Both the position numbers and the translations under genes were made by a program. The notes beneath the pieces were generated by a model. It was not told the origin of the DNA. It saw only the letters and a list, made by a program, of their open reading frames with translations, and did no database searches. Shown piece by piece: positions 57,531 through 57,775 of a stretch of DNA of 64,000 nucleotides. The DNA is from Clostridia bacterium (GTDB lineage Bacteria > Bacillota > Clostridia > Christensenellales > QALW01), in the NCBI GenBank assembly GCA_045591115.1, contig JAZNSH010000014.1, positions 14,769-78,768 on the forward strand. The letters are read 5' to 3'. Positions within the stretch are counted from its first letter, which is position 1, and each line of letters begins with the position of its first letter.

Positions 57531-57775
57531 AAGGCAGATGCAAAAAGCATCTGCCTTCAGTCTGCTGACAAAGTCAGCAGACTGTCAGAGTTCGAGAAGC
57601 CCTTGCAAGCCAAGGCGCTGAACTTGCAAAAAAGGGAGTTTACACAGACGTAAATGACCGCATTTTGCAAGTGAAATGCAACGACGGAAACAAACCCCTG
57701 CAAAATTTTTGCAGGGGTTTGTGTTTGCAGGGGGTTGTCAGTGCTCTGAAGGCAGATGCAAAAAGCATCTGCCTT
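57531..57775 (+). mobile_element. Element B copy 2: a 191-bp non-coding insertion (57558-57748) flanked by a duplicated 27-bp terminator stem-loop
   Basis: AAGGCAGATGCAAAAAGCATCTGCCTT occurs at 57531-57557 and again at 57749-57775. The T-tract follows only the second copy. Confidence 0.8.

Follow-up and report, generated by a model that had tools for sequence, protein, structure and literature searches.

We analysed a 64-kb stretch of DNA (hereafter the window) in which pckG, encoding a GTP-dependent PEPCK, is followed by a hairpin that occurs twice, on either side of a 191-bp insert (Table 1). The identity of the gene, proposed in an earlier reading made from the letters alone (the sequence-only reading), is supported by its PEPCK_N and PEPCK_GTP domains, and an exact-protein look-up of the PEPCK returned no record. 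The duplicated hairpin, AAGGCAGATGCAAAAAGCATCTGCCTT, has an 11-bp stem and a 5-nt loop and occurs exactly twice in the window, against a chance expectation of 0.00. The two occurrences are exact 27-bp repeats and the run of Ts begins at position 57776, after the second one only, just as that reading had described. In a simple scan of the pckG 3' region for terminators and promoters, only the downstream hairpin copy scored as a terminator on the plus strand, and no promoter-like site was found in the element or the surrounding region. The target of the insertion was the pckG terminator; the gene on the 3' side of the site is a convergent MFS transporter gene with a terminator of its own.

The left end of the element, CAGnCnGnTGACAAAG, is folded as a hairpin, in which CAGTCTGCTGAC and GTCAGCAGACTG form a perfect 12-bp stem around an AAA loop. 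The terminal inverted repeats are imperfect, CAGTCTGCTGACAA matching the reverse complement of TTGTCAGTGCTCTG (CAGAGCACTGACAA) at 10 of 14 positions. Direct reading of the sequence agrees with the earlier description of both features, and a search of the whole window for the terminal repeat found four element ends and nothing more. The element lacks a conserved ORF: its short overlapping ORFs are unlike between the two copies present in the window.

That the insert behind pckG is a second copy was also correctly noticed, since a first copy, 92% identical, lies upstream in the window. It is flanked by a 20-bp direct repeat of another hairpin, ACCGCGGAAAGATCCGCGGT, different from the 27-bp hairpin of copy 2. 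A nhmmer search with a profile of 15 copies detected no third copy in the window, which also contains no transposase gene, no extra terminal repeats and, according to TRF, no excision footprints in the form of tandem hairpin-hairpin arrangements. Directly downstream of copy 1 lies a truncated 145-aa ORF (40436-40873, minus strand), in which the 3' part of a GGGtGRT-family gene (PF14057; 45033-46034, minus strand) recurs; the corresponding 285-bp segment is found at 40440-40724 and 45040-45324 with 97% identity. The window also carries a T-box leader (RF00230, 105.7 bits; 2788-3026, minus strand) upstream of a minus-strand ORF (1376-2740), consistent with a Bacillota host, and contains no tRNA or tmRNA.

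Table 1. Features of the window and of related autonomous insertion sequences (IS). Positions are those of the window unless a contig is named.
Feature	Position	Strand	Basis or remark
pckG, GTP-dependent PEPCK	55750..57525	+	Pfam PEPCK_N and PEPCK_GTP (PF00821 and PF17297), E = 3.5e-164
Upstream hairpin copy, left target-site duplication of copy 2 (27 bp), T-tract gone	57531..57557	+	Exact repeat of 57749-57775; no terminator score
Element copy 2 (191 bp), very probably a non-autonomous IS1182-family derivative (MITE)	57558..57748	+	Ends match IS1182-family insertion sequences
P1, left terminal inverted repeat CAGTCTGCTGAC with its inverted copy, 12-bp stem, AAA loop	57558..57584	+	Predicted and consensus fold
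P2, 5' strand of the long closing helix, pairs with 57722-57748	57586..57610	+	MFE and consensus fold
P3 hairpin with two TTGCAA motifs	57622..57672	+	MFE and consensus fold; different, still complementary sequence in subfamily B
P4 hairpin ACAAACCCCTGCAAA/TTTGCAGGGGTTTGT	57690..57722	+	Six pairs with compensatory changes; equivalent to the subterminal hairpin at the IS right end
Right terminal inverted repeat TTGTCAGTGCTCTG	57735..57748	+	10/14 match to the left terminal inverted repeat
Downstream hairpin copy (right target-site duplication, 57749-57775) and original T-tract	57749..57782	+	Sole intact plus-strand terminator of pckG
Left target-site duplication of copy 1 (20 bp)	40166..40185	+	With the upstream A-tract, still reads as a minus-strand terminator
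Element copy 1 (191 bp)	40186..40376	+	92% identical to copy 2
Right target-site duplication of copy 1 and its T-tract	40377..40403	+	Direct repeat and terminator scan
Unoccupied target, single terminator hairpin AAGAAACCCGTCATAAGACGGGTTTTTT	20431..20458	+	Orthologous site in MAG contig L026 carries the element
IS in L036, left-end hairpin and T-run	L036:~1385-1425
IS in L041 (MAG contig)			Hairpin duplication ~32 bp
IS in L043/L044 (human-gut metagenome), left-end hairpin and T-run	L043:~485-525		Hairpin duplication 39 bp
ISCbo5 in L046 (finished C. botulinum BKT015925 plasmid), left-end hairpin and T-run	L046:~264-306		Hairpin duplication 30 bp
ISBma2 in L047 (finished B. pseudomallei plasmid), left-end hairpin and T-run	L047:~335-385		Hairpin duplication 22 bp
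IS in L048 (finished C. estertheticum plasmid), left-end hairpin and T-run	L048:~265-325		Hairpin duplication 19-20 bp

When one genome per species was scanned with a 20-mer taken from the element's left part, 29 loci were returned (L001-L029), 28 of them in metagenome-assembled genomes (MAGs) of uncultured gut 'Clostridia bacterium'; the match in L012 is a chance match within a coding region and was discarded. About 20 loci (at least 20) belong to a single MAG, JAZQII01, and four other MAGs hold further copies. These genomes provide some 35 further copies, nearly all of which sit between two copies of a local hairpin. Across the approximately 35 left and 22 right junctions that we extracted from L001-L029, each left end follows, and each right end precedes, a G+C-rich hairpin. 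Wherever both sides were available, the two hairpins have the same sequence, and the duplications, seen at more than 12 sites, are about 17-29 bp long and for the most part of the type 5'-A...T-3'. The halves of a site are sometimes split over two contigs, as in L024 with L005. Copies fall into subfamilies that differ by indels, and the element ends are conserved in all of them. Viral contigs gave no match to either of two patterns (one internal, one from P1), and a search of plasmid DNA with the element gave none either.

Two orthologous empty sites document the insertion itself. The single terminator hairpin at the unoccupied target in the window corresponds to a hairpin-element-hairpin arrangement in L026, with flanks 94% identical over 4 kb, and the single hairpin of L023 corresponds to a filled site in L017. 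Because each empty site keeps one hairpin, the element was inserted with duplication of its target. Together with the dozens of further copies, these sites substantiate the earlier proposal that a 191-bp repeat element had been inserted between a terminator hairpin and its T-tract. At the empty site of the window, 2.4 tandem copies of a 22-bp unit, GCAAGAAATTTATGGATAAATA, lie at the 3' end of an ORF (19358-20407), and the array (20385-20436) runs into the target hairpin at 20431.

The orientation of the copies is less telling. Both copies in the window do lie on the plus strand behind plus-strand genes, as the sequence-only reading pointed out, but this does not hold generally: in L028 and in L022 (right end at 1265), the element is antisense to the only gene that its hairpin terminates. 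Since most sites lie between convergent genes, orientation is uninformative at the majority of them, and the hairpin-element-hairpin-T-tract layout reads alike both ways because the whole palindrome is duplicated. The targets themselves look bidirectional, as the 8 nt that precede the upstream hairpin contain 4.9 As, about as many as the 5.3 Ts in the 8 nt that follow the downstream hairpin.

What the sequence-only reading missed is the link between this element and the insertion sequences of the IS1182 family. A metagenome scan with a 19-mer from the right end yielded four matches. Three of them (L030, L032 and L033) are chance matches at one unrelated locus, and the relevant one, L031, is a 2-kb contig with a 484-aa ORF carrying the DUF772, DDE_Tnp_1_6 and DDE_Tnp_1 domains (PF05598, PF13751 and PF01609). 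The 3' end of this insertion sequence reads ...AAACCCTGCA-loop-TGCAGGGTTTGTCAGTGCTCTG, which forms a hairpin equivalent to P4. Its last 22 nt agree at 22 of 22 positions with the consensus of the element, most copies of which end in the same TGCAGGGTTTGTCAGTGCTCTG. Its 5' end, CAGACCGTTGAC-aaagttcat-GTCAACGGTC, forms a hairpin resembling P1. At the left, the element shares 12-13 of 15-16 nt with L031, with the insertion sequences of L036-L040 (transposase P0011) and with ISBma2, and a left-end hairpin of the P1 type is found in the autonomous insertion sequences of L031, L034-L036 and L043. Homologues of the L031 transposase are numerous, and those with an annotation are listed as 'IS1182 family' or 'ISBma2 family' transposases. 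The insertion sequence of L031, the closest one, belongs to an organism richer in G+C, and its similarity to the element is confined to the termini and does not extend to element positions 28-132. The termini expected to bound a cognate IS1182-family transposase gene are CAGTCTGCTGAC...GTCAGTGCTCTG; none of the insertion sequences that we found has exactly the left end CAGTCTGCTGAC, and the matching ends all come from other organisms.

Full-length autonomous relatives, of about 1.55 kb, have the same architecture and the same target behaviour. Their duplications measure 19-39 bp, compared with about 17-29 bp for the 191-bp element, and all of them are hairpins. In some short metagenomic contigs (L031, L035 and L042) the hairpins on the two sides of the insertion sequence differ; these contigs may be chimeric assemblies across a repeat, or they may reflect real rearrangements. 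Among the short contigs L036-L040, the same hairpins appear on the left flanks of some and on the right flanks of others, which is the expected product of chimeric assembly across a repeat. L036 also holds a solo inverted fragment of an IS right end (CAGACCATTGACAAACCC..., 1331-1355) between two different hairpins, just upstream of the full insertion sequence, and this fragment may be the remnant of an earlier insertion. A terminator-like hairpin followed by a T-run is present within about 60 nt of the left end in every autonomous IS1182-type relative examined. It might replace the host terminator split by the insertion, or shield the transposase gene from read-through. P1 of the 191-bp element differs in that no T-run follows it.

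ISfinder gives direct repeats of 0-60 bp for the IS1182 family. Members of this family are known to favour hairpins: copies of ISCbo5 are located in terminator hairpins (PMC3098183), and IS1272/TnSha1 of staphylococci targets hairpins and terminators with little specificity for primary sequence (PMC4923244, PMC5678879). Unlike the element of the window, around which the whole hairpin is duplicated, IS1272 reportedly removes part of the hairpin and leaves no target-site duplication. The closest likeness is to ISBma2 and ISCbo5, with which the element shares its termini (CAGnnTGnTGAYAAA at the left, GTCARnnnTCTG at the right), a hairpin at or beside each end, and insertion into terminator hairpins with hairpin duplication (PMC3098183). 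It departs from them by its length of 191 bp, by its lack of a transposase gene and by the internal helices P2 and P3, which have no counterpart in the insertion sequences examined.

We conclude that the 191-bp element is very probably a MITE, a deletion derivative of an ISBma2/ISCbo5-like insertion sequence of the IS1182 family that duplicates the hairpins into which it inserts and would be mobilised in trans. From the insertion sequence it has kept the left terminal repeat, folded as P1, and the subterminal hairpin beside the right terminal repeat. It is shorter than about 300 bp, has terminal inverted repeats, target-site duplications and empty sites, and is dispersed, with two copies in the 64-kb window. 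Like the bacterial MITEs RUP, BOX, Correia and SPRITE, it is non-coding, multi-copy, intergenic and strongly folded when transcribed, and such elements are likewise enriched between convergent genes (PMC3049150, PMC10969869). RUP/BOX/Correia-type MITEs make short duplications of fixed length (e.g. TA), and SPRITE is terminator-like without a defined duplication, in contrast to the variable-length, structure-defined hairpin duplicated here. The element neatly illustrates a kind that is already known and does not define a new class of system; a literature search retrieved no paper on an IS1182-derived MITE.

Targeting of hairpins, hairpins at or near both ends and a plus-strand bias in structure could also evoke an element that recognises hairpins in single-stranded DNA, either of the HUH type (IS200/IS605, PATE or REP/RAYT-like) or a terminator-homing retroelement such as the remnant of a group IIC intron. 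Group IIC introns home to intrinsic-terminator stem-loops and insert beside them; they move by RNA-mediated retrohoming without duplicating the target, measure at least about 0.6 kb and contain ribozyme domains. The window element shares with them the adjacency to a terminator stem-loop. Retrohoming and ribozyme traits do not apply to it: at 191 nt it is far too short, and it has no intron domains and no ribozyme or other Rfam match. Neither IS200/IS605 elements nor group II introns duplicate their target, whereas duplication of the whole hairpin is the rule here; moreover, the termini match those of DDE-type IS1182 elements and no HUH or reverse-transcriptase gene is associated with the copies. 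We therefore regard a single-strand element or retroelement as extremely improbable. On account of the duplications and the IS1182-type ends, we rejected each of the candidates IS200/IS605, REP/RAYT, group IIC introns, integron attC sites and SPRITE (PMC3049150 for the latter).

The fold of the element calls for closer consideration. The plus strand has a predicted minimum free energy of -98.7 kcal/mol (z = -11.5) and forms four helices, compared with -80.3 kcal/mol for the minus strand. In the consensus of 15 copies, 68 pairs are formed, 98.2% of the cells are paired and compensatory changes occur at 13 pairs, most of them in P3 and P4; these values were not reached in any of 500 column shuffles, and slid controls dropped to about 38% paired. 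One-sided changes read on the plus strand leave G·T polymorphic in 16 pair columns and A·C in 6, an excess that is a modest sign of plus-strand-specific constraint. The sequence-only reading had asked for conservation of motifs and structure among further copies, and it is the structure that is conserved. Its three TTGCAA(G/A) motifs are present in copy 2 (starting at element positions 45, 66 and 108), but each is one half of a stem, and subfamily B has another, still complementary sequence in place of the two in P3, so TTGCAA is not a conserved binding motif. Within P4, the 3' arm is tandemly duplicated (57708-57738, TTTGCAGGGGTTTGTG / TTTGCAGGGGGTTGTC); alternative structures are possible because the 5' arm could pair with either. 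No Rfam family was recovered by a permissive search of the region, or at gathering thresholds over the whole window, where only the unrelated T-box reached threshold. The best match of the element, GcvB, scored 38.6 bits, below the gathering score of 42, and was rejected as driven by generic hairpins, as were sub-threshold, hairpin-driven matches to leader peptides.

Such a fold is what one would expect if the element were first of all a module of structured non-coding RNA that stabilises 3' UTRs, gives rise to an sRNA or regulates in cis, with selection acting on its plus-strand transcript and with mobility being secondary or the MITE having been domesticated. The expected read-through, past an upstream hairpin copy without T-tract, would put this RNA in the transcript. 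However, the presence of the element is polymorphic among close relatives, its copy number is high, its sites lie beside unrelated genes, and certain copies, such as those of L028 and L022, lie antisense to the gene that the hairpin terminates. There is also no Rfam match and no promoter of its own was found. Covariation is itself open to other causes: template switching can make the two arms of a DNA palindrome alike even where no selection acts (quasipalindrome correction), and because the copies form few subfamilies, the compensatory changes amount to few events. P1 and the P4-type hairpin are common to autonomous insertion sequences and for that reason probably serve transposition or its control. 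We consider it quite improbable that the element is primarily an RNA module.

The MITE interpretation nevertheless has to accommodate a fold whose strength and plus-strand G·T bias exceed the needs of a MITE moved by a double-stranded-DNA transposase. The conserved four-helix fold leaves room for a role as RNA or as single-stranded DNA. The MITE could have been co-opted as a 3'-UTR RNA module made of P1-P4, stabilising abundant mRNAs such as that of pckG or serving as a source of sRNA; in a variant of this idea, the plus-strand fold would stem from IS1182-type transposition passing through single-stranded DNA and capturing a cruciform target. We hold this addition to the MITE interpretation to be unlikely. 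To our knowledge, neither RNA co-option nor a single-stranded DNA step or cruciform capture has been described biochemically for the IS1182 family.

For the mobilisation of the MITE, the comparative data suggest the following scheme. An IS1182-family DDE transposase would act in trans on the MITE and select palindromic DNA, in practice the hairpins of intrinsic terminators. The two ends of the element would be joined to the two strands at opposite feet of the palindrome, which is probably extruded as a cruciform or strongly distorted at capture, bringing its feet together. Gap repair would then copy the entire palindrome and leave a target-site duplication of hairpin length. Because the duplication spans the palindrome, the joining positions lie 17-39 bp apart on linear DNA and track the size of the hairpin. 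A symmetric cut at the cruciform base is too simple to account for everything, since the duplication is asymmetric relative to the palindrome at two sites (L009 and ISCbo5), where it extends from the outer foot of the 5' arm to a point past the G+C-rich core of the 3' arm. Spacer integration by Cas1-Cas2, and casposons, offer an analogy: strand transfers at opposite ends of a (semi)palindromic repeat lead to duplication of the whole repeat. The resemblance goes no further than analogy, since the enzyme family is unrelated, the repeat length fixed and the locus specific.

A duplicated terminator hairpin around an insert is the normal footprint of one subgroup of the IS1182 family. To its description we add more than 20 independent MITE insertion sites, several sites of full-length insertion sequences and two empty sites, at which the length of the duplication (about 17-39 bp) follows the palindrome and not a fixed stagger. 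These data should be useful for understanding how uncharacterised DDE transposases capture structured DNA, and what remains of interest is why the fold of the element is so strong and strand-biased, and how this transposase subgroup captures its target. As for the host genes, the pckG transcript should read through the upstream hairpin and then through 218 nt (the element and the second hairpin copy), stopping at the regenerated terminator. With the T-tract missing from the upstream hairpin and no promoter-like site predicted, such read-through is plausible. Many 3' UTRs of these gut Clostridia are predicted to be longer by about 200 structured nucleotides, with termination probably preserved.

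Several copies show further rearrangements at hairpins. In L029 (flanks of 259-449), in L001 (~7667-7687) with L005 (~30-50) and possibly in L026 (7986-8000), the loops of the two hairpin copies are reverse-complementary (TTTTT with AAAAA, TTAAAAA with TTTTTAA) and the stems are the same, which points to template switching, or to recombination between arms, at the time of gap repair through the palindrome or later. The 3-nt loop of P1, a perfect palindrome, is likewise flipped, from AAA to TTT, in L028 (~1235-1261), L010 (~2920-2947), L016 (3514-3540) and L025 (~207-233). In L018 (1679-1988), two copies lie head-to-head and share one P1 (reverse-complemented body, P1, body), forming a large palindrome that could be due to insertion into P1 as a hairpin target or to hairpin-primed copying. 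An unrelated second MITE of about 284 bp, absent from the window, has the terminal inverted repeats ATACTATAGCGCACGC / GCGTGCTATAGTAT; it is partial in L010 (1-205), L022 (1-200) and L025, and in L014 (3730-4013) is nested in helix P3 of a copy of the element.
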